A DNA stretch of 64,000 nt from sequence record NC_094493.1, one strand, 5' to 3'. This document shows positions 22,331 to 33,482 of the stretch, one piece after another. The DNA comes from a phage. The notes beneath the pieces were generated by a model that saw nothing but the letters and a program-made list of their open reading frames with translations, did not search any database and was not told where the DNA came from. The translations under genes and the position numbers were made by a program. Positions within the stretch are counted from its first letter, which is position 1; every line of letters begins with the position of its first letter.

Positions 22331-23536
22331 ATGATTTTCATCTACGAACATTTCAAAACTCGTAAAGAAGCACGCGACCGCCGTGCAGAACTTGAGAAGA
22401 AGGGTTTCACATGTGCCATTGAGAAAGGTGACACAACCTGGACACTGGCAGTGGGTGCCCCAGAATTGTTCGATCCTGACCGTGACAGCGTCTGCTACAC
22501 CCGTGAGGATTTTGAAACCCGTGAAGAGGCCCGTCTATTTCGATATGGGCTGGAAGATAACGGTAAGTACGCCATGATCTTAGACTTAGGCGAAGGTTCC
22601 GTTAAACGTTGGAGCGTGATATACCCACTGTGTGTTGTTCACGGTGTGGGGTTCACCGGGGTGGCAATCAAGTCAGAAGAACCTTTAGTAGAAGTCAAAG
22701 ACCCGGTGCTGGAGGTGGTGAGCAGTGTGTCTCAGCAACAGACTCGAAGCATCGAGCCTTTAGTAGTTATTTGTGGGGAACTCCTCCAGATCACCTGCAA
22801 CGAAGGCATTTTTGAAATTCGCCGCAGCGAAAGTGAGGAAGTTTACCAGAAAGTCTTCGACCATATCTCTGTTCAGGAATATGATGAGGCAATTGGTGAA
22901 ATCCTTGTCTGGCTGGAACGCAAGAATGAGTTCACCACACTTGCAGACAACCTGATCATGAAAGATGGTAAGCTCTACTACTACGGTGTAGAGATGCGAT
23001 CCACCATTGCAAAGAAAATTGAGAAAGACTATGCAGACGGAACACTGGATGACCGCTATGTGAAATTCCTCGTTCGCCTGCTACGCAATCCTTCTGCAAA
23101 ATCTGTAAACATGCTCTACGATTTTATGCAGGCCAACGATATCCAGATTGCAGAAGATGGTCGAATCATTTGCTACAAAGGGGTTCAGTTTAACGGCAGC
23201 AAGTGGGTGGATTGGCACAGTGGTAAAGTTCCACAATACCAGGGTGCTTTTGTATCCATGCCTCGTAACTTTGTAGAGGATGATCCTGAAGCTGCGTGCT
23301 CCTATGGCTTACACTGCGCCAGCAAGGAGTATGCAAAGAGCTACGGCACTGTAATGACTGTCATGGTTGACCCTGCAGATGTGGTTAGTGTGCCATACCA
23401 ACACAATAGCGCTAAGTGCCGTGCCTGCCGCTATGAGATTGTGGTAGCTCCGGAAGCACGCAAGGACGGAGACCCGATTGAATACGTGGTTGACCGAGAC
23501 GGTAACACTATCGACATTCTTTACGAGGAGGCGTAA
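22331..23536 (+). CDS. hypothetical protein, possible rIIB-like partner
   Basis: 401-aa ORF with AAGGAGA RBS directly downstream of the rIIA-like gene; assignment by synteny only. Confidence 0.45.
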   Translation: MIFIYEHFKTRKEARDRRAELEKKGFTCAIEKGDTTWTLAVGAPELFDPDRDSVCYTREDFETREEARLFRYGLEDNGKYAMILDLGEGSVKRWSVIYPLCVVHGVGFTGVAIKSEEPLVEVKDPVLEVVSSVSQQQTRSIEPLVVICGELLQITCNEGIFEIRRSESEEVYQKVFDHISVQEYDEAIGEILVWLERKNEFTTLADNLIMKDGKLYYYGVEMRSTIAKKIEKDYADGTLDDRYVKFLVRLLRNPSAKSVNMLYDFMQANDIQIAEDGRIICYKGVQFNGSKWVDWHSGKVPQYQGAFVSMPRNFVEDDPEAACSYGLHCASKEYAKSYGTVMTVMVDPADVVSVPYQHNSAKCRACRYEIVVAPEARKDGDPIEYVVDRDGNTIDILYEEA

Positions 23537-25305: not shown

Positions 25306-26631
25306 ATGAGTAAAACCAAATTAGAACTTACCTGGATAGGTAAAAACGAGCGCAAAAAGTTAGAGCCGCACATTTTGTTAGAAGATTCTAGCAAGTCTTA
25401 CCACAGCCAGAAAGTGACCGAAAACGATATTTTTGATAATAAACTGATTTTTGGAGATAACTTATTAGCATTGAAGGCGCTAGAGCAAGAGTACGCAGGC
25501 AAAGTGAAGTGTGTTTACATAGACCCACCATTCAATACCGGGAGGGCTTTTGAGCACTACGATGATAGCCTGGAGCATTCCATTTGGCTGGGCTTAATGA
25601 GGGATAGGTTAGAAATAATTCGTAATCTTCTAAGTGATGATGGGGTAATATTCGTTCACTTAGATGATTGCGAAATGGCGTATTTAAAAGTTTTGATGGA
25701 CGAGATTTTTGGTCGTGCAAATCAGTTAAATACCATATCGATGACCACAAATTCCCCTTCGGGATTTAAGGCAACAGGAGCCACAGTTTTCTCCACAGCA
25801 AACTTTTTGCTTGTATATGCAAAAGATCGCACCCAGAAACCGCTTAACAAAATCTATATACCTAAAGGGTATGATACAGGATATAACAAATACCTATTAA
25901 ACCCGGATGACCATTATAAAAATTGGACGTGGTGCGGTATTGCCGATGCGTTTGCAAAGGCCAATGGCTATAAAGATGCAAAAGAAGCCAAGAAAAAACT
26001 GCCTGACACATTCGATGATGAATTAGCACAATTCGCAATTGATAATGCAGAACGTGTATTTCAATCTGTTGCAATTGGCGGTGGTGCTAAAATAAAGAGA
26101 AAAGAAACTATCGAGAAGTCAAAGAAAGATAGGGATAAGGTTTATGTACATCCAAATGAAGATGTTGAAGGATTTTATATCGCAAATGGTAGGCAAATGG
26201 TCTTTTACTCCAACAGGCTTTTGGAAATTGACGGTGATATGCAACCTGCGGAACTAATAACTGATGTTTGGACAGACATTAGTTGGAATGGAATAGCAAA
26301 TGAAGGCGGCGTTAGTTTCAAAAATGGGAAAAAACCAGAAGCGCTTTTGAAGCGAATTTTCGAAATGTGTACGCGAGAAGGCGATTTGGTATTGGATTCA
26401 TTCGGTGGTTCGGGAACTACTGCTGCTGTAGCTCACAAGATGAAAAGACGTTGGATCTCCATCGAGATCGGTGATCATTGCCATACCCATATTATTCCGC
26501 GCTTGGAAAAAGTGATCGATGGGGAAGATCAAGGTGGTATTTCTAAGTCTGTAAACTGGCAAGGTGGTGGTGGCTTCCGTTATTACAAACTTGCCCCGAC
26601 CTTAATTGCGAAAGATAAGTCTGATCAATAA
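25306..26631 (+). CDS. DNA N6-adenine/N4-cytosine methyltransferase (beta-class)
   Basis: Motif IV DPPFNTG precedes motif I-like FGGSGTT; 441 aa; AAGGAGA RBS. Confidence 0.75.
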   Translation: MSKTKLELTWIGKNERKKLEPHILLEDSSKSYHSQKVTENDIFDNKLIFGDNLLALKALEQEYAGKVKCVYIDPPFNTGRAFEHYDDSLEHSIWLGLMRDRLEIIRNLLSDDGVIFVHLDDCEMAYLKVLMDEIFGRANQLNTISMTTNSPSGFKATGATVFSTANFLLVYAKDRTQKPLNKIYIPKGYDTGYNKYLLNPDDHYKNWTWCGIADAFAKANGYKDAKEAKKKLPDTFDDELAQFAIDNAERVFQSVAIGGGAKIKRKETIEKSKKDRDKVYVHPNEDVEGFYIANGRQMVFYSNRLLEIDGDMQPAELITDVWTDISWNGIANEGGVSFKNGKKPEALLKRIFEMCTREGDLVLDSFGGSGTTAAVAHKMKRRWISIEIGDHCHTHIIPRLEKVIDGEDQGGISKSVNWQGGGGFRYYKLAPTLIAKDKSDQ

Positions 26632-26644
26632 AGAGTACAATCAA

Positions 26645-26950
26645 ATGATGAAATGTTATAAACCATACACTTTTGAAATCGATTTCGAACTTGACGATAT
26701 GTTCACTGTGGAAGCTCAGGCAGTTGTCCAGTTGCCAGACCCAGAGTGCCGTGATTCTGATGTTGACTATTACGGATTTAGACAAATTACCGATGTGCAT
26801 GTTTACCACAACGGTGAAGAGGTGGACTTCCACCAATTGCCAAACGATATGCGCCACTCAATTTACAAACGTGCAGCCCGTGAACTAGAGTCCTATCTGG
26901 ATGCAGCGACGACAGCAGCTGCATTTGCTGAAGAAGTGGGAGGTTTCTGA
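26645..26950 (+). CDS. hypothetical protein
   Basis: ORF-track ORF 26606..26950 trimmed to the first ATG clear of the upstream gene. Confidence 0.45.
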   Translation: MMKCYKPYTFEIDFELDDMFTVEAQAVVQLPDPECRDSDVDYYGFRQITDVHVYHNGEEVDFHQLPNDMRHSIYKRAARELESYLDAATTAAAFAEEVGGF

Positions 26951-27345
26951 TGATTACAGGTGTGAAGATTATCCAATACCACTTAACCAAATTGGAAGAT
27001 GCTGAAAAAGAGCTTGCAGAAGTTCTAAATAGTGGATATACTTTGCTATCATGCGCCTGCTCAGACACCTACGCTGTGTGGACACTTATCCGGAAGGAGG
27101 AGCCTGCAGGGATCTTGGTGCCAAACCCTAAGATTATCAGTGAAGTGGAGGACTGCTCTCAGGACGGCCTGTCAGAAGACTGGGAAGCATGGGAAGGTGG
27201 TGAAAACCCTGCACCAGGTAAGTGGGTAAAATACAAACTACGTAGCGGTGCACAGCACGCTGGATACTCTGATAACCTGGACTGGAGTCATTCTTCACCG
27301 GAATCATTGGTAAGTGCATATGATATCGTTGCTTTTCAGGAATAA
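26950..27345 (+). CDS. hypothetical protein (131 aa)
   Basis: Start overlaps upstream stop. Confidence 0.5.
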   Translation: MITGVKIIQYHLTKLEDAEKELAEVLNSGYTLLSCACSDTYAVWTLIRKEEPAGILVPNPKIISEVEDCSQDGLSEDWEAWEGGENPAPGKWVKYKLRSGAQHAGYSDNLDWSHSSPESLVSAYDIVAFQE

Positions 27346-27357
27346 GGAGAGAGTGTT

Positions 27358-27840
27358 ATGTCAGATTTTATGTGGAAAGTAGGTTATGCCTCTCCTGAAA
27401 TGTGCGAGGCTTGCTTTGTAAAAATAGGCCGCGAGGATATTGACAAAGTGATCTTTAAGTTTCGTGATGTATCTGTGATCGGCAACCGAGTGCTTAAGCA
27501 CTTAAAGAATCTGAAGCTCACCAAAAAGAAGTTCTTCGGACTTTTCGAAGAGAAAGTTGATGCTTGGACCCATTGCATTCAGGAAGCTAAATCTCACTAC
27601 AGTGCTATCGTTACCCCAGAACGGGTAGCCAAGATGGAAGGATTCATCAACAGCACAGAGTTTGAGTGCCTAAAGGCTGCCCTTAATAGTTATCCAAAGT
27701 GCCTCAAACACCTTGACAAGTATGTAGAAAAGGATGGGGAAATGTATCTCACCCTGGATGCATACTATGAGATGCAAGAAATTTTAAATTTAGATTTGAC
27801 ATTGGTATCCACCGAGTATACAATAGGTATCCGGGTTTAA
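27358..27840 (+). CDS. hypothetical protein (160 aa)
   Basis: ATG with GGAGAGAG RBS. Confidence 0.55.
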   Translation: MSDFMWKVGYASPEMCEACFVKIGREDIDKVIFKFRDVSVIGNRVLKHLKNLKLTKKKFFGLFEEKVDAWTHCIQEAKSHYSAIVTPERVAKMEGFINSTEFECLKAALNSYPKCLKHLDKYVEKDGEMYLTLDAYYEMQEILNLDLTLVSTEYTIGIRV

Positions 27841-27846
27841 CACTAG

Positions 27847-27873
27847 GCCCTGCCCGAAAGGGTGGGGCTTTTT
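27847..27873 (+). terminator. intrinsic terminator (copy 1 of a shared hairpin)
   Basis: GCCCTGCCCGAAAGGGTGGGGC hairpin followed by TTTTT; identical hairpin recurs at 38254. Confidence 0.65.
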
Positions 27874-27891
27874 GCATTAGGAGACAGCAAA

Positions 27892-28656
27892 TTGAAATTT
27901 ATCTATAAAGAACACTACCACAAAGGTGTTGTGTGGAGTCTATTTGACGGATCTGGCGGTGCAGTCATTGACTGGGCAAAAGCTGGATATCTGTGCCTGT
28001 GCTTTAACGCAGAAGGTGCTGACCACGGCAGTTATGCAGAGGTGATCACCGATCATCCAAATATTCACTATGTAGATTATTGGATTGATCCATGGTTCCC
28101 TCAGGAAACTTTCTGCATGTACCCAGCTCCGGACTTTGTTCTTGCATTTCCTCCGTGCACGCATTTAGCGGTATCAGGTGCTGCACATTTTAAGAAAAAG
28201 CTGGCTAAGGATCCTTTGATCCAAATTAATGCTGTAAAGGATGCTCGGGTTGCGGAAGAGCTGGGAGAGATTTACGATTGCCCGTGGCATGTAGAGAATC
28301 CTGTTGGTGTTATGTCCACACTGTGGCGCAAACCTGATTACCGTTTTCATCCTTCTGACTATGGCGGGTATTTACCGGAGGATGATGTAAACCCCTGGTT
28401 TCCTGAATTTATAGCTCCACGTGATGCCTATCCAAAAATAACTTGCGGCTGGATAGGTAATGGATTTATAATCCCGGCCACAAAACCTGTCCAGCAAATA
28501 GTTGACGCGGTTAGCGGGTATTCCATGCAACACGCCAAGCTGGGTGGAAAGAGTGCAAGAACGAAGATGATCCGAAGCCTCACACCACGTGGCTGGGCAA
28601 AAGCCGTATTCTTAGCAAACGAGCCTGTAGTAAGGAGCAGAATTAATGGGAAGTAA
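27892..28656 (+). CDS. DNA (cytosine-5) methyltransferase-like protein with atypical PCT motif
   Basis: Motif I-like LFDGSGG, motif IV-like FPPCTHLAVSGA and motif VI-like VENPVGV in canonical order; start set to TTG 27892 after AGGAGA RBS (ORF-track GTG 27862 lies inside the terminator hairpin); start uncertain. Confidence 0.5.
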   Translation: MKFIYKEHYHKGVVWSLFDGSGGAVIDWAKAGYLCLCFNAEGADHGSYAEVITDHPNIHYVDYWIDPWFPQETFCMYPAPDFVLAFPPCTHLAVSGAAHFKKKLAKDPLIQINAVKDARVAEELGEIYDCPWHVENPVGVMSTLWRKPDYRFHPSDYGGYLPEDDVNPWFPEFIAPRDAYPKITCGWIGNGFIIPATKPVQQIVDAVSGYSMQHAKLGGKSARTKMIRSLTPRGWAKAVFLANEPVVRSRINGK

Positions 28657-30724
28657 ATTTATGGCATCTGCATACAACCGTTTCGGTGAGCCAAACCCGA
28701 AAGCAACTAAGTATAAAAGTGGGGGAAGTGTGAAACGAGACTATCGTGATGAAAAAGAAGTTGAAACTGTAGAGACTGTTTTAGAAAATACTAAAATTGT
28801 CCCTGTCCCACAACAAAATATCGGTCTGATGGCTGCACAATATTTTGGTGTGCGATCAGCATTGTCCCAAGAAGACGGTGTGACAGTCACTGCAACATAT
28901 TTCCCATATTACGACCGCTACGGAAATCTGTCTGGTTTCAAAAAGCGTGACTGGACTATTCCTAAAGAGCAAAGGGGCCATTTCTCCGTTGTTGGCATCG
29001 TAAAGGCCAACTCCCAGATGTTTGGTCAAAAGCTGTGTGCATCTTCCAACAACCGTAAGCAGATTAACGTTTGTGAGGGAGAAGGTGATGTTATTGCAGC
29101 ATGGCAGGCTGCATATCAGATACAAGTAAAAGGGATTCTCACCAACGCTAAAGCCCCGGCAAAGGTGAAGCAGTGGGCTAAAGAGGTCCAGGACGGGATC
29201 GACGCAGTTATCAACGGTGGTGATCTGGCAGGAAAACCCTGCCTGCCTTTTGTTGGAATTAACTGTGGATGTGCAAACGCAGTAGATACTTTTGCAAACA
29301 ATGAGAAGTTTATCCGTAGCTATGGAACAGTTGTGCTGGCAATGGATAACGATGCAGCTAACGAGGTAGAGAAGCAAAAACACGTCATTAAAGGTGTTGA
29401 GGCCACGCACAATATCGCAGCATTTTTGATGGCTGATAACGTTTACCACGTAGAATACCCTGGTGAAGTAAATGACCCTGACGGTGTAAAAGATATCCGA
29501 GACATGCTGAAGGCTAAAAAGCTGGAAGATATTGTCAACATGTTCCGGCACCCTGTTAAATATGTGCCTGATGCTGTGTCGGATTTAGAAGACTTCTCTA
29601 TCGAGTCTTTGCGGAAAAAGACTTCCAACGGGGTAGATATCAGCGCAGAGTTCCCAAAACTGCAAAAAATGCTAAAAGGCTTGCACAAAGGGACACTCGT
29701 AATGCTTACAGGTCCGTCAGGTGGCGGTAAAACAACCATAGCTAAAAAACTGGAACACTGTATTGCAAGATACCTAATGGACCCGACATGTCCGAAGGCC
29801 GATGACTACGAAGAGGATGATCGTCTATGCATGATCCATCTTGAGGAGGATCCAGAGGAAGCAATTAACTCCTTGTATGCAAACCAGTTAGGGTTTGATG
29901 TTAAAGAGTTTGTTGAAGATCCTAGCCAGTTTTTAACTGATCAAGAACACGCAGAGATTCACCAATCATGGGCAAAAGCTGGAAAAATCAAAGTGTTCAA
30001 ACATTTCGGATCTATTCCGGTGGACGAGTTGATTACTAAGCTTAAGCAAATGGTTTGCCTGTACCATTGTCGTTATATTGTGCTTGATCACCTGTCCATG
30101 GTAATTTCAGGGCTTAATGTTAAGGATGAGCGAAAAGAACTGGACATGGCTATGACCCAACTGGCTGCGTTTTGTAAGCAGTTTAACGTGTTTATCTTGG
30201 TGATCGCTCACCTCAAACGTATAGAGATTGTGCCTCCTAAGGACAAGGATGGTAACCCGTTACCTTTCTGGTATCCTGTGCGAAAAGAGAATTTGCGAGG
30301 ATCGGCTGGGCTTGAACAGTTGAGTTGGGTAGTCATAGGTGTCGAGGCCGAAGAAATGGTGGATCGTTCTCGTGGACGTGTCCGTCTGGTAAGTCTTAAA
30401 AACCGTCCAGCAAAAACTTTAGGTATTGCTGACACTTTAGTTATGGACCCTCACACAGGCAAGTTCCATGATGCCAGCAATTGGTACTGGGATAAAGAAA
30501 TGCAGATGTTTACAGACGGAGAAGGTGGGGAGGTTGTTTGGAGACCTCAGGCTATGTTTGAGGATCAGGAGCATACAGTTGTAGAAACACCTATGGGTAA
30601 GGTTGTGGCTGATAAGGTTGTAACTCCTACTGTTAAACCTGTTGACACGCAGGAAGACCTCCAGTACGATGATCCATCCTCTGACCAGGTCCCCGGTTTT
30701 GAGGATGATGAAACGCCTTTTTAA
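28646..30724 (+). CDS. primase-helicase (TOPRIM domain + DnaB-like helicase)
   Basis: TOPRIM-like CEGEGD and AMDNDAAN; helicase Walker A LTGPSGGGKTT and Walker B YIVLDHLS; acidic tail ending DDETPF; AAGGAG RBS; 692 aa. Confidence 0.7.
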   Translation: MGSKFMASAYNRFGEPNPKATKYKSGGSVKRDYRDEKEVETVETVLENTKIVPVPQQNIGLMAAQYFGVRSALSQEDGVTVTATYFPYYDRYGNLSGFKKRDWTIPKEQRGHFSVVGIVKANSQMFGQKLCASSNNRKQINVCEGEGDVIAAWQAAYQIQVKGILTNAKAPAKVKQWAKEVQDGIDAVINGGDLAGKPCLPFVGINCGCANAVDTFANNEKFIRSYGTVVLAMDNDAANEVEKQKHVIKGVEATHNIAAFLMADNVYHVEYPGEVNDPDGVKDIRDMLKAKKLEDIVNMFRHPVKYVPDAVSDLEDFSIESLRKKTSNGVDISAEFPKLQKMLKGLHKGTLVMLTGPSGGGKTTIAKKLEHCIARYLMDPTCPKADDYEEDDRLCMIHLEEDPEEAINSLYANQLGFDVKEFVEDPSQFLTDQEHAEIHQSWAKAGKIKVFKHFGSIPVDELITKLKQMVCLYHCRYIVLDHLSMVISGLNVKDERKELDMAMTQLAAFCKQFNVFILVIAHLKRIEIVPPKDKDGNPLPFWYPVRKENLRGSAGLEQLSWVVIGVEAEEMVDRSRGRVRLVSLKNRPAKTLGIADTLVMDPHTGKFHDASNWYWDKEMQMFTDGEGGEVVWRPQAMFEDQEHTVVETPMGKVVADKVVTPTVKPVDTQEDLQYDDPSSDQVPGFEDDETPF

Positions 30725-30782: not shown

Positions 30783-33206
30783 ATGAGTATGTGGTCTTTC
30801 GATCTGGAGGCCTCCGGGCTTTTGGAAGATCTAGATCTTTATTATCACTGCGGTCTGTTTAAAGAGCTGAATAAGAACCGTTTTATGCTGTTCCTTCCTC
30901 TAAATGACCGCACACACTACTCCGAGGAGGATATAGAGAAGGCTAAGAACTTTATTCTGGCAAAGAAAACTCTTTATAAAGATTTTGAAGTTCGCATAGC
31001 AGATTTTTCGGAGTTGGAAGGTTGGCTTACAGGCAATTCCGACTGGTCACCAACAGCTTTGAACTGCCATAACTGCTACAGTTATGACTTTATGCTGATG
31101 GAAAGATTATCCGGTATTCATTTTGACATGTTCCGTGATCCTAAATGCATGGGTACTATCAACGACCACCAGGTTAACCTGTTTGATACGTTGGCGATGA
31201 GTCGAATCTTGTGGCCTGATCGCCCTTTACCAAAAGGTTGTCCGGACTCTGTATTCAACCCGGTCACTAAGAAAATGCAGCCTGTTGGTCCTCACGGCCT
31301 TATGGCATGGGGCTATGCTCTTGGTAACCAGAAAGTTCAAATTGATGACTGGCGCGATCTTCCGTTGTGGAAGTATGTGGATCGTGTATTTGAGGACGTT
31401 ATCATCCAGGAGCTGCTCTGGAAAGAACTGGTAGCGGAATCAAAAGGTGTATTCTACGGCAAGTCTGACATGCAGAACTTTATGTACGATCCTGCCAAAG
31501 AGAAGCCGAAAGGGTTCAAGAAGATCACCTGGAAGAACGCATTACGCCGAGGCATGCTGCAGCACTTCCTGATGGAGCTGCAGGCCCGTCAGGGTGTGTA
31601 TTTCGACATAGATGGAGCTATTGCTTTACGTGACCGTTGCGATGCGTGGATGAAAGAAATCGCTGATCGTGTTGAACCACAACTGCCTTTAAAAGAGCTG
31701 TCAATGTCTCAGCGGCCCAAGTTCCCTGAAAAGCCGTTTAACCAAGACGGGACAATCTCTAATAATGGTTGGAAATGGTTAAAAGATAAGCTTGGCTATC
31801 CTGTAGACATGAGCGCTCTAGAGTTCAAAGCCCCGCCTAAGAGAGCATTTACCTCCACAGGAGATGTCAGTAAGATGGGGATAAAATGGTGTGAAGAGAT
31901 GGGCTGCAAAGACCCCGATAAGATGGCTGATTTCTTGAGAGGCTATATTAAGGGCACCTCAACACCACAACCTTTACCTAAAGAGCTAATGGATCAGGCA
32001 ATAAGCGATCTGCAGCAGAAGCGAATGCCTGACTGCAAGATACCTATGAAAATCAGCAATCAGGACGACATTAAGCGATACCTGATCAGTGCTGGTTGGC
32101 TTCCGACAATGTGGAGAACTAAGGATGTAACTAAAGACAGCAAGAAGAAAGCTCTACCTGATGCAGATGTTGATGCACGAGTATATGCATACATGGACGA
32201 GCTTTTAGAGTCAGAGTATTGTGACCTAATTATCAACTTCTGGAACAAAACTGATGCTAAGTTTCAGACAACAGTGCACAAGTTCCGAAGCTTTCCTAAC
32301 TCCGAAAGGATTAAAAAGGAAGTATTCGGGAAAATACGTAGAAAAGCTAGGGCACTTATTACTTCTCCGCAACTGAAAGATACGTTTGGACACCTATGTC
32401 CGAATCTTGAAAAATTGAACGGAGAGATGGCTAAGGATATCGTCTTGTGGTTATCCTTGCGAAACCGCAGATCGGTCCTTGATCCAATCAAGGAGGATAA
32501 GGTTGATACTGGTCTTCTTAATCACCCACGCTTGAAGATTGACCATAAGCTTCCTGCTAAAAGCTCCGGATTAACAAACACTTCCAGACAGAAACACAGC
32601 ATTTGTGCAAACATGCCTAAACCCTCTCCTAAAGTGGTTATGGGTAAGGAGATGCGTAGCTTGTGGGGTGTTCCTCCTGGATACTTTGAGATCGGTATTG
32701 ACGGGTCCAACTTAGAGCAGCTTATCGGGGCTTGGGGTGCCTTTGAGTTCGACAACGGCTTGTATTATGATGTTGTAAGTAACGGGGACGCACACCAAAA
32801 CAATGCTGAGGCATATACAAAAGTAGCAGGCAGAGAGGTGTCTCGTAACGACGGTAAACCTATCACGTATGGGGTTATGTACGGGGCACAAAAAGATAAA
32901 GTTGCAGATATGCTGGACATCTCTCCAGAGTTGGGACAAAGGGTAATCGATGCACTCTGGGATGCCAACCCTGGTCTTAAGGGGCGCAAAGAGGATCTGG
33001 AGAAATTCTGGGAAGCAACAGGTAAGAAGTTTATCTACTCTTTTGATGGTCATGCTATCTGGACCCGATCTAAACACTCTTTACTTAATGCATACCAACA
33101 GAATGGTGGTGCATCGCTGTGTGACTTGGTTGGGATACTTATGCACCACCAAATGGTGAAGCGTGGGTGGTACGATGAAGGTGTTCGTCGTATTATTTAT
33201 TACCAT
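30783..33206 (+). CDS. family A (T7-like) DNA polymerase, exon 1
   Basis: 3'-5' exonuclease Exo I FDLEASG; motif A IDGSNLEQL; motif B RNDGKPITYGVMYGAQ; reading frame stops 1 codon after ...IIYYH, exactly where motif C (HDE) should continue. Confidence 0.85.
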
Positions 33207-33482
33207 AAATAACATTGTGGCTTCATAGAGTAATCTATGTCGAATAACCTCTTTAACTGCGGGAAGCCTAAACCTTATGGCAAGGTAATCCGCAACGAAG
33301 CGCTCAAAAGAGCGAACGCTCAGAGGCCATTCCGAAAGGAAGTAGACCAGCAAGTGCGGTCGAAATGGGAGGATTCCTGTGGTTGCTTATCATAGGAATA
33401 TGAGATGGTCCGATCCTACGTGAAAACGTATGGCTATGCACGTAATGGTGCGGGGTAGCTTAACGACCTACCTGAACTATTG
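33207..33482 (+). ncRNA. putative group I self-splicing intron (no ORF) interrupting the DNA polymerase
   Basis: 276 nt between ...YYH and DEYQLQV...; 5' exon ends in U and intervening sequence ends in G; P-like AACTGCGGGAAG (33255), Q-like AATCCGCAACG (33287), R-like GTAGACCAG (33342) and S-like GAGATGGTCC (33402) elements; candidate guide GTGG at 33217. Confidence 0.7.

Follow-up and report, generated by a model that had tools for sequence, protein, structure and literature searches.

Phage DNA of 64,000 nucleotides (nt) from sequence record NC_094493.1, in the following referred to as the window, carries two genes of the DNA methyltransferase (MTase) type, here termed gene A and gene B. 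The main finding concerns gene B, whose product of 254 amino acids (aa) we consider to be probably a stand-alone, sequence-specific DNA C5-methylase, which depends on S-adenosyl-methionine (SAM, AdoMet) and is built like the catalytic domain of DNMT3. The Thr residue after its putative catalytic Cys is the hallmark of a large family and not the quirk of one gene. Neither gene A nor the fact that two methylase genes lie close together is unusual. The original prediction had placed two MTase-type genes about 1.2 kb apart, and both were confirmed as open reading frames (ORFs) on the + strand with 1,260 nt between them.

Gene B has the smallest C5-MTase-like architecture seen in this analysis, and standard curated profiles miss its family. 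With both positions of the pocket around the transferable group changed, the family can serve as a test case for the minimal protein needed to recognise and flip a cytosine, and also for further cryptic cytosine marks in phages. A self-made cytosine mark in rV5-like, T1-like and Klebsiella phages would bear on restriction, Type IV systems, nanopore base-calling and cloning, and would be relevant to phage therapy and phage engineering.

Fold and motifs of the gene B product

The gene B product was modelled with AlphaFold2 from an alignment of 24 sequences (predicted local distance difference test, pLDDT, 90.8; predicted template modelling score, pTM, 0.89), and the model has the class I Rossmann MTase fold with C5-MTase topology. 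In a Foldseek search DNMT3A/B were the top matches (expectation value, E, 5e-6), and the fold matches also comprised a Shigella Dcm-like enzyme, M.HhaI, M.HaeIII, DNMT1, ZMET2, M.MpeI, EhMeth, DNMT5, Dnmt2 and DIM2. A thymidylate-synthase-like or other fold was rejected, as every top fold match was a C5-MTase. The profile search which had been proposed for separating C5-MTases from thymidylate-synthase-like folds gave no match in Pfam, NCBIfam or PADLOC, an outcome named in the original prediction as part of its refuting condition; the thymidylate-synthase-like fold was excluded by the fold search.

Gene B starts with TTG at 27892, as had been predicted, and ends at 28656. The start is preceded by an AGGAGA ribosome binding site (RBS) with a 7-nt spacer, located directly 3′ of a terminator-like hairpin, and matches the 254-aa annotation of the BASEL phages. 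In a mechanical ORF list the frame begins further upstream, at a GTG (27862) that falls inside this hairpin (27845-27870).

The C5-MTase motif order FDGSGG, PPCTHLAVSG and ENP named in the original prediction was read directly from the translation, and residue conservation, counted over 225 diverse relatives of gene B, speaks against a chance occurrence. In motif IV, Cys89 is present in 220 and Thr90 in 209 relatives, position 86 being Phe in 209; in motif VI, the counts are 224 for Glu135, 216 for Asn136 and 223 for Pro137. Motif IV aligns to 'SPPCSAFSVAG' of CmoX and 'SPCNDLS' of DNMT3B. Also conserved are Asn39/acidic 41 and Asp66, which would bind the ribose and adenine of SAM. The C-terminal signature comprises Arg228 (221/225), Ser229 (208/225), Pro232 (215/225) and Gly234 (219/225). 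Here, motifs IX and X are collapsed to one segment, I-R-S-L-T-P-R-G-[FW]-A-x-A-V, which resembles both and has no GN; the secondary structure around it is helix, loop and a 19-residue helix.

Only about 20-45 residues are left for target recognition. The protein is indeed too short for a conventional target-recognition domain (TRD), and for such shortness the DNMT3 catalytic domain of about 280 aa provides a precedent. The candidate region consists of a short insert, which is invariant in enterobacterial phages and missing from minimal distant family members, and a strand conserved across relatives as D178-x-Y180-x-K182-x-T184-x-x-W187.

The gene B family

Gene B is a full-length member of the PHROG phrog_757, 'DNA methyltransferase' (E 1e-86). 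Its product shares 98-99% identity with counterparts in more than 100 rV5-like genomes and 45-62% with those of other phage groups. By tblastn, relatives were found in 1,502 phage records (about 3% of 50,697 deposited), from rV5-likes, RB49-like T-evens, T1-like Drexlerviridae, Dhillonvirus, Klebsiella siphoviruses, phiKO2 and other phages. Large protein collections held 3,518 clusters at 90% and 2,043 at 50% identity, mostly of 210-260 aa. Bacterial copies were detected by a GTDB scan in Vibrionaceae, Alteromonadales, Planctomycetota, Verrucomicrobiota, Bacteroidota, Chloroflexota, Alphaproteobacteria, Desulfobacterota, Bifidobacterium and Herbiconiux, and further copies in two archaea (Halobiforma and a Methanosarcinales metagenome-assembled genome). 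The relatives are annotated variously, from 'hypothetical' to 'Dcm-like C5 cytosine methyltransferase'. The family is already widely annotated and apparently uncharacterised biochemically, its name resting on similarity.

PPCT occurs in 114 of the 120 closest clusters. Thr after Cys is kept in nearly all cellular copies, and the ENP motif in all 50 cellular and viral loci covering that region. Actinobacteria, Bacteroidota, Planctomycetota and archaea show the same signature of Thr and Arg-Ser, and Cys89-Thr90, Glu135-Asn-Pro and Arg228-Ser229 are near-invariant in Proteobacteria too. Near-invariance of Cys89, Glu135, Asn136, Pro137 and Arg228, together with this signature from bacteria to archaea, points to purifying selection on the active site. 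The Thr in place of the usual Gln, which had been noted in gene B, is family-wide, and there are precedents for residues other than Gln in DNMT3 (PCN) and CmoX (PPCS). A few high-GC family members (P0238, P0241 and P0250) have Ser instead of the catalytic Cys and E-G-P instead of E-N-P; they may be inactive or chemically different paralogues.

Across about 50 loci of the family no recurrent partner gene was found. Contexts include replication modules, T1-like early regions next to helicase/replication genes and, in lambdoid phages, nin regions with a Dam-type methylase alongside. In one case a helicase is fused to the family member, and the longer members contain no informative fusion except one HNH domain. 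The copy of Methylosinus sporium (CP172862; locus L048, 3219-14419) is part of a defence island, with a QatABC module on one side and a pair of PLD-helicase and DUF1156-methyltransferase on the other; it matches no component of any PADLOC system, and the locus gave weak matches to the MADS components mad1 and mad2 (E about 5e-4). At four unrelated bacterial loci (L029, L030, L042 and L070) a second small SAM-methyltransferase-like ORF (151-166 aa) adjoins the family member, which echoes the pairing in the phage.

Restriction sensitivity and sequence footprints

Vequintavirinae were described as 'exceptionally susceptible' to restriction-modification (RM) systems of type II and III and seem to be without effective protection (BASEL). 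Also, the methylase gene content of T1-like phages does not predict restriction resistance (BASEL). Both observations argue against a non-specific cytosine modification of the whole genome, and the RM sensitivity implies that any protection conferred by gene B is narrow. The restriction results leave room for a discrete motif outside the panel used for BASEL.

A target motif was sought through mutational footprints, for which 11 relatives were projected on the window, resulting in 44,889 usable sites and 5,388 polarised changes, 2,091 of them from C to T. Convincing hypermutability was seen in no context of 2-6 nt, and no motif emerged; since the Dcm control CCWGG was also flat, this is a weak test with little power. 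In no di- or trinucleotide context was C-to-T elevated more than 1.45-fold. The C-to-T rate was 0.116 at CpG and 0.106 overall; at always-synonymous NNC sites, it was 0.338 before G and 0.283 overall. The CpG bias at synonymous sites was mild, C-to-T being 1.2-fold up and T-to-C 0.77-fold. Over the whole window (1-64000) CpG is depleted (observed/expected, O/E, 0.71) and TpG/CpA is in excess (1.16); reading the CpG depletion as a sign of CpG methylation was rejected, as the C-to-T mutational footprint does not support it. Strongly avoided 6-bp palindromes in the window are CGATCG (0 observed, 15.4 expected), GGCGCC (0, 13.1), TGGCCA (2, 18), GGATCC (12, 27.8) and GAGCTC (8, 22). CTAG (O/E 0.50) and GTAC (0.62) are also low, and GATC, CCWGG, GAATTC and GATATC are not avoided.

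Proposed function of gene B

The chemistry that the observed fold and conserved residues suggest can be outlined as follows. SAM would be held by the AdoMet-binding Rossmann half (FDGSG, Asn39/acidic 41, Asp66). Cys89 of PPCT would attack a flipped-out cytosine at C6, N3 of this base would be protonated by Glu135 of ENP, and the methyl group would then be moved to C5. The short conserved insert (residues ~154-200) and the basic helix before RS.TP.G would replace a separate TRD, much like the minimal TRD of DNMT3, and from this likeness the target is probably a short specific sequence. Thr90 and Arg228-Ser229 would re-line the pocket around the transferable group. Genes A and B are proposed to act as independent orphan DNA MTases in the early/replication block, marking newly made phage DNA, and gene B probably serves to protect against some of the host restriction systems or has a different epigenetic role.

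For the pocket, we take the residue after the Cys as the motif IV position, following work on M.HhaI Q82A/N304A, and we liken 'R-S-[LW]' of gene B to a 'G-R-S-W' which, presumably, is the corresponding sequence of DNMT3A. The motif IV position and the Asn position of motif X jointly shape the pocket around the transferable group (PMC13594970). For the use of bulky cofactors, bacterial enzymes needed substitutions in both motifs, while DNMT1 needed only N1580A; DNMT3A naturally carries an Arg at the motif X position, yet it is an AdoMet user (PMC13594970). In CmoX, Arg350 occupies the motif X position and binds the carboxylate of carboxy-SAM (Cx-SAM); the enzyme accepts only this donor, and the R350N mutant is dead (PMC12783734). 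The CmoX sequence, checked to be identical to PDB 8yf3, reads SPPC-Ser and G-Arg-MVPP. Judged by its residues, Thr and Arg-Ser, gene B appears to fall between the DNMT3 and CmoX precedents. Arg228 is a candidate counterpart of the Arg found in motif X of DNMT3 and CmoX, and we infer a register in which it stands opposite N304 of HhaI, R887 of DNMT3A and R350 of CmoX. By hhalign, gene B aligned to a CmoX-family profile at motifs I-IV only (pairwise E 6e-4); its N-terminal half could also be aligned to DNMT3B, at a similarity that was not significant (E about 0.5).

Weighing of alternative explanations

Besides the restriction phenotypes and the flat mutational footprint described above, several results weigh against gene B being a C5-methylase. 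No MTase match to PF00145, NCBIfam or PADLOC was obtained at E <= 0.1, a precomputed PF00145 match exists in only 3 of the 120 closest clusters, and only PHROG and structure tie gene B to C5-MTases. In the C-terminal half, phmmer and profile searches of the PDB, run with the whole family and separately with its last 130 and its last 50 residues, gave nothing significant, so that no sequence similarity to any solved C5-MTase (PDB) was detected there. The arginines of motif VIII (Q.R.R) are unrecognisable, the equivalent strand being Y-P-K-x-T-C-x-W. The first Gly of motif I (Gly20) is found in only 121/225 relatives; the wider family keeps only F-D-x-[ST]-G, and Tyr, Arg or Phe can replace this Gly. 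The literature searched on rV5-like, T1-like and BASEL phages held no methylome or enzymology for the family.

Some of these observations would fit a catalytically dead C5-methylase fold, which might be a DNA-binding or regulatory protein like DNMT3L or a replisome accessory: the missing curated profile match, the degenerate motif I and unrecognisable motif VIII arginines, and the few high-GC members with Ser for Cys and EGP for ENP. We regard this as unlikely, because the conservation of Cys89 and Glu135 across domains of life is hard to explain without catalysis, and the putative SAM ribose/adenine residues are conserved as well. Similarly unlikely is an activity on RNA (e.g. tRNA, as for Dnmt2) or another non-DNA substrate. 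The minimal TRD and the fact that neither a DNA-level footprint nor a restriction phenotype was seen are compatible with such a substrate, but Dnmt2 ranks below the DNA enzymes in both fold searches, the gene consistently lies within modules of DNA replication and beside DNA adenine methylases, and a helicase is fused to one family member. Distinctly improbable is a C5-methylase with little or no sequence specificity, which would modify most cytosines as a general anti-restriction shield. Only 254 aa without a discrete TRD, and the very high conservation of DNA-facing segments across many phage groups, could be cited in its favour. The broad-specificity anti-restriction methylase of the original prediction is not supported, in view of the exceptional RM susceptibility of Vequintavirinae and the lack of a hypermutable short context of the 5-methylcytosine (5mC) type, C-to-T elevation being at most 1.45-fold in all di- and trinucleotide contexts. 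Furthermore, rV5-likes were isolated on K-12 MG1655, which retains McrA, McrBC and Mrr, and the strong avoidance of several 6-bp palindromes suggests that these sites are unmasked.

The original prediction had also considered a different pyrimidine modification, which is disfavoured. Its prime candidate is the transfer of a carboxymethyl group from Cx-SAM made by the host CmoA to cytosine C5, as catalysed by CmoX, resulting in 5-carboxymethylcytosine (5cxmC). The two signatures resemble each other (SPPC-Ser and G-Arg-MVPP in CmoX, FPPC-Thr and I-Arg-SLTP in gene B), the essential Arg of CmoX binds the Cx-SAM carboxylate (PMC12783734), and the positions in motifs IV and X jointly set the size of the transferable group (PMC13594970). 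Moreover, Cx-SAM is available in E. coli, where expression of CmoX by itself yields 5cxmC (PMC12783734), so that the reaction is chemically conceivable for a coliphage. We nevertheless consider it very improbable that gene B moves such a non-methyl group, as DNMT3A with its motif X Arg still methylates using AdoMet, the published 'SPPC' criterion contrasts with FPPC in gene B, and the register of R228 and R350 was left unproven by hhalign and profile searches. In addition, no CmoA or CmoY homologue was found in the window, and no cmoA or amide ligase homologue within 8 kb of 52 family loci. In the CmoX survey, by comparison, 4,257 CmoA and 2,251 ligase sequences were found on contigs of 5,615 candidate CmoX genes (PMC12783734). 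The gene B signature also occurs in Actinobacteria, Bacteroidota, Planctomycetota and archaea, while cmo5U/CmoA was described as a Gram-negative trait (PMC12783734). About as improbable is the generalisation that phrog_757 as a whole is not a methylase family but comprises minimal C5-alkyl transferases with a donor other than SAM, most plausibly host-made Cx-SAM. If a Cx-SAM donor were true, thousands of enterobacterial phages (rV5-like, T1-like, RB49-like, Klebsiella Webervirus and lambdoid prophages) would carry sparse, undetected 5cxmC or a related mark without a CmoA of their own. A SAM-dependent, sequence-specific C5-methylase thus remains our preferred explanation for gene B.

Gene A and genomic context

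Gene A was correctly predicted as a beta-class amino-MTase, with a match to PF01555 N6_N4_Mtase (E 1.5e-42) and DPPF before FGGSGTT; more precisely, it is Type III Mod-like according to PADLOC and PDB searches. It matches phrog_67 (E 2e-63) and, with residues 1-439, 444 of 575 positions of the PADLOC profile MTase_III PDLC03636 (E 6.9e-205), and its nearest solved structures are the Mod subunits 6k0w (E 1e-28) and EcoP15I Mod 4zcf (E 3e-24). As motif IV (DPPF) is N-terminal to motif I (FGGSGTT), the order is that of the beta class; DPP[YF] before F.G.G with a central TRD and the Mod profile match place gene A in the Mod family. DPPF instead of SPP[YF] presumably favours N6-adenine over N4-cytosine as target, and by analogy with Mod subunits gene A would put an N6-methyl group on one adenine of a short asymmetric site. 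The ORFs examined at 22.3-33.2 kb (rIIB, Dda/PIF1-like helicase, small ORFs, primase/helicase and polymerase) contained no Res subunit, no search for Res having been made elsewhere in the window; on the evidence from 22.3-33.2 kb, gene A is treated as an orphan methylase and not as part of a full Type III system.

More than 100 rV5-like Vequintavirus genomes, among them those of Murica, BASEL phages and O157 typing phages, match a 4-kb stretch around both genes at 97-99.8% identity. All genes in the region are on the + strand in the order rIIB, Dda/PIF1-like helicase, small ORF, gene A, three small ORFs, gene B, primase/helicase and DNA polymerase (Table 1). The three ORFs between the methylase genes are labelled as hypothetical proteins in BASEL phage RudolfGeigy. 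Taken as 26606-26950, the first of them, assigned to phrog_4240, gave weak matches to the 'DNA methyltransferase' PHROGs phrog_1573 (E 2e-5) and phrog_2060 (E 8e-3), by which it may be a methylase-associated small domain.

Directly upstream of gene B the order of elements is unusual: a sigma-70-like promoter match lies about 20 nt 5′ of the hairpin, followed by the RBS and TTG start. The promoter match is the best one at 22-31 kb, and the total number of such matches in the region is not in excess over the shuffled expectation. Terminators are annotated in the Murica record within the stretch that holds the hairpin. The arrangement could be a leader/attenuator, or the promoter match could be due to chance. 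Gene B and the primase/helicase gene that follows it share 11 nt, as read directly from the sequence, and this overlap together with the upstream sigma-70-like match fits expression of gene B alongside DNA replication.

Table 1. Positions of genes, motifs and signals in the window
Feature	Position	Strand	Remarks
Gene A, presumed N6-adenine DNA methyltransferase, beta class, Type III Mod-like, treated as orphan, 441 aa	25306-26631	+	PF01555, phrog_67, PADLOC MTase_III, PDB Mod subunits
Gene A motif IV DPPF, residues 73-76	25522-25533	+	Direct reading; inside PF01555 match
Gene A motif I FGGSGTT, residues 366-372	26401-26421	+	Direct reading; aligns to AdoMet loop of Mod and CcrM in PDB matches
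Three small conserved ORFs between gene A and gene B	26648-26950, 26950-27345, 27358-27840	+	phrog_4240, phrog_11995, phrog_12900, all PHROGs of unknown function
Sigma-70-like promoter match TTGACA-17-TACAAT (11/12)	27796-27824	+	Best in 22-31 kb; consensus match only
Terminator-like hairpin between small ORFs and gene B	27845-27870	+	11-bp stem, 7 G-C pairs, T-run
Gene B, minimal C5-cytosine-methyltransferase-like enzyme, 254 aa, phrog_757 family	27892-28656	+	TTG start, AGGAGA RBS
Gene B motif I-like FDGSGG, residues 18-23	27943-27960	+	Aligned to DNMT3B 'SLFDGIATG', HaeIII 'SLFSGAGG'
Gene B motif IV PPCTHLAVSG, residues 87-96	28150-28179	+	Putative nucleophile Cys89; Thr90 where Gln is usual
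Gene B motif VI ENPV, residues 135-138	28294-28305	+	Putative general acid Glu135; Pro replaces Val of ENV
Gene B insert GGYLPEDD.NPWFPEF and D.Y.K.T..W strand, residues 158-187	28363-28452	+	Candidate minimal DNA-recognition / motif VIII region
Gene B IRSLTPRG, residues 227-234	28570-28593	+	Candidate motif X, before last long helix; Arg228-Ser229 where canonical enzymes have Asn-Ser/Ala
Primase/helicase gene	28646-30724	+	phrog_239 E 9e-160; DnaB_C

Further observations were made on the neighbouring genes and on related records. The DNA polymerase ORF (30783-33212) encodes 809 aa, and its BASEL homologue is annotated as a join of two pieces spanning 3,054 nt; in relatives, HNH homing endonucleases adjoin the polymerase gene. 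The two-piece annotation and the neighbouring endonucleases suggest an intron, an intein or a split gene. The rIIB homologue (22331-23536) has an N-terminal duplicated SPOR-like segment (Pfam SPOR E 1e-3, sub-threshold). Also, at least 16 records named 'UNVERIFIED: Campylobacter phage', with C. jejuni given as host (among them MG065635, MG065659, MG065662, MG065674, MG065682 and MG065690), are 96-99.8% identical to this Escherichia rV5-like sequence; probably, they represent coliphage contaminants or mis-assigned hosts.

Comparison with known systems

Gene A has the beta-class motif order in common with the Mod subunits of Type III RM systems (EcoP15I Mod 4zcf; 6k0w), from which it differs in its length of 441 aa instead of about 620-645 aa and in being treated as a phage orphan. 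For gene B, the order of motif I, PC and EN(V/P) is common to the canonical C5-MTases (M.HhaI, M.HaeIII, Dcm; PF00145), and its homologues are labelled 'Dcm-like' in GenBank. In contrast to these enzymes, it has PCT instead of PCQ, is about 75-220 residues shorter (254 aa versus 327-472 aa), and has neither a separate TRD nor the GN of motif X, and its motifs VIII and IX cannot be identified. CmoX (PDB 8yf3; PMC12783734) is likewise phage-encoded, with a small hydroxyl residue after PPC (Ser, where gene B has Thr) and an Arg near motif X. It differs from gene B by its 372 aa, a normal TRD, a PF00145 match, recognisable motifs VIII (Q.R.R) and IX, and SPPC instead of FPPC. The phrog_757 proteins of rV5-like, RB49-like, T1-like, Webervirus, phiKO2 and lambdoid phages show no structural difference from gene B. 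With DNMT3A/DNMT3B, gene B shares a short catalytic domain (about 280 aa in DNMT3) with a minimal TRD, a motif I of the type 'SLFDG..', a residue other than Gln after the catalytic Cys (PCN in DNMT3B) and, with Arg228 as candidate, perhaps the Arg at the motif X Asn position. The identity is 12-17%, and DNMT3 has Asn instead of Thr after the Cys, PC instead of PPC and ENV instead of ENP; unlike DNMT3A/DNMT3B, gene B has no regulatory domains and is a stand-alone protein of phages and prophages.

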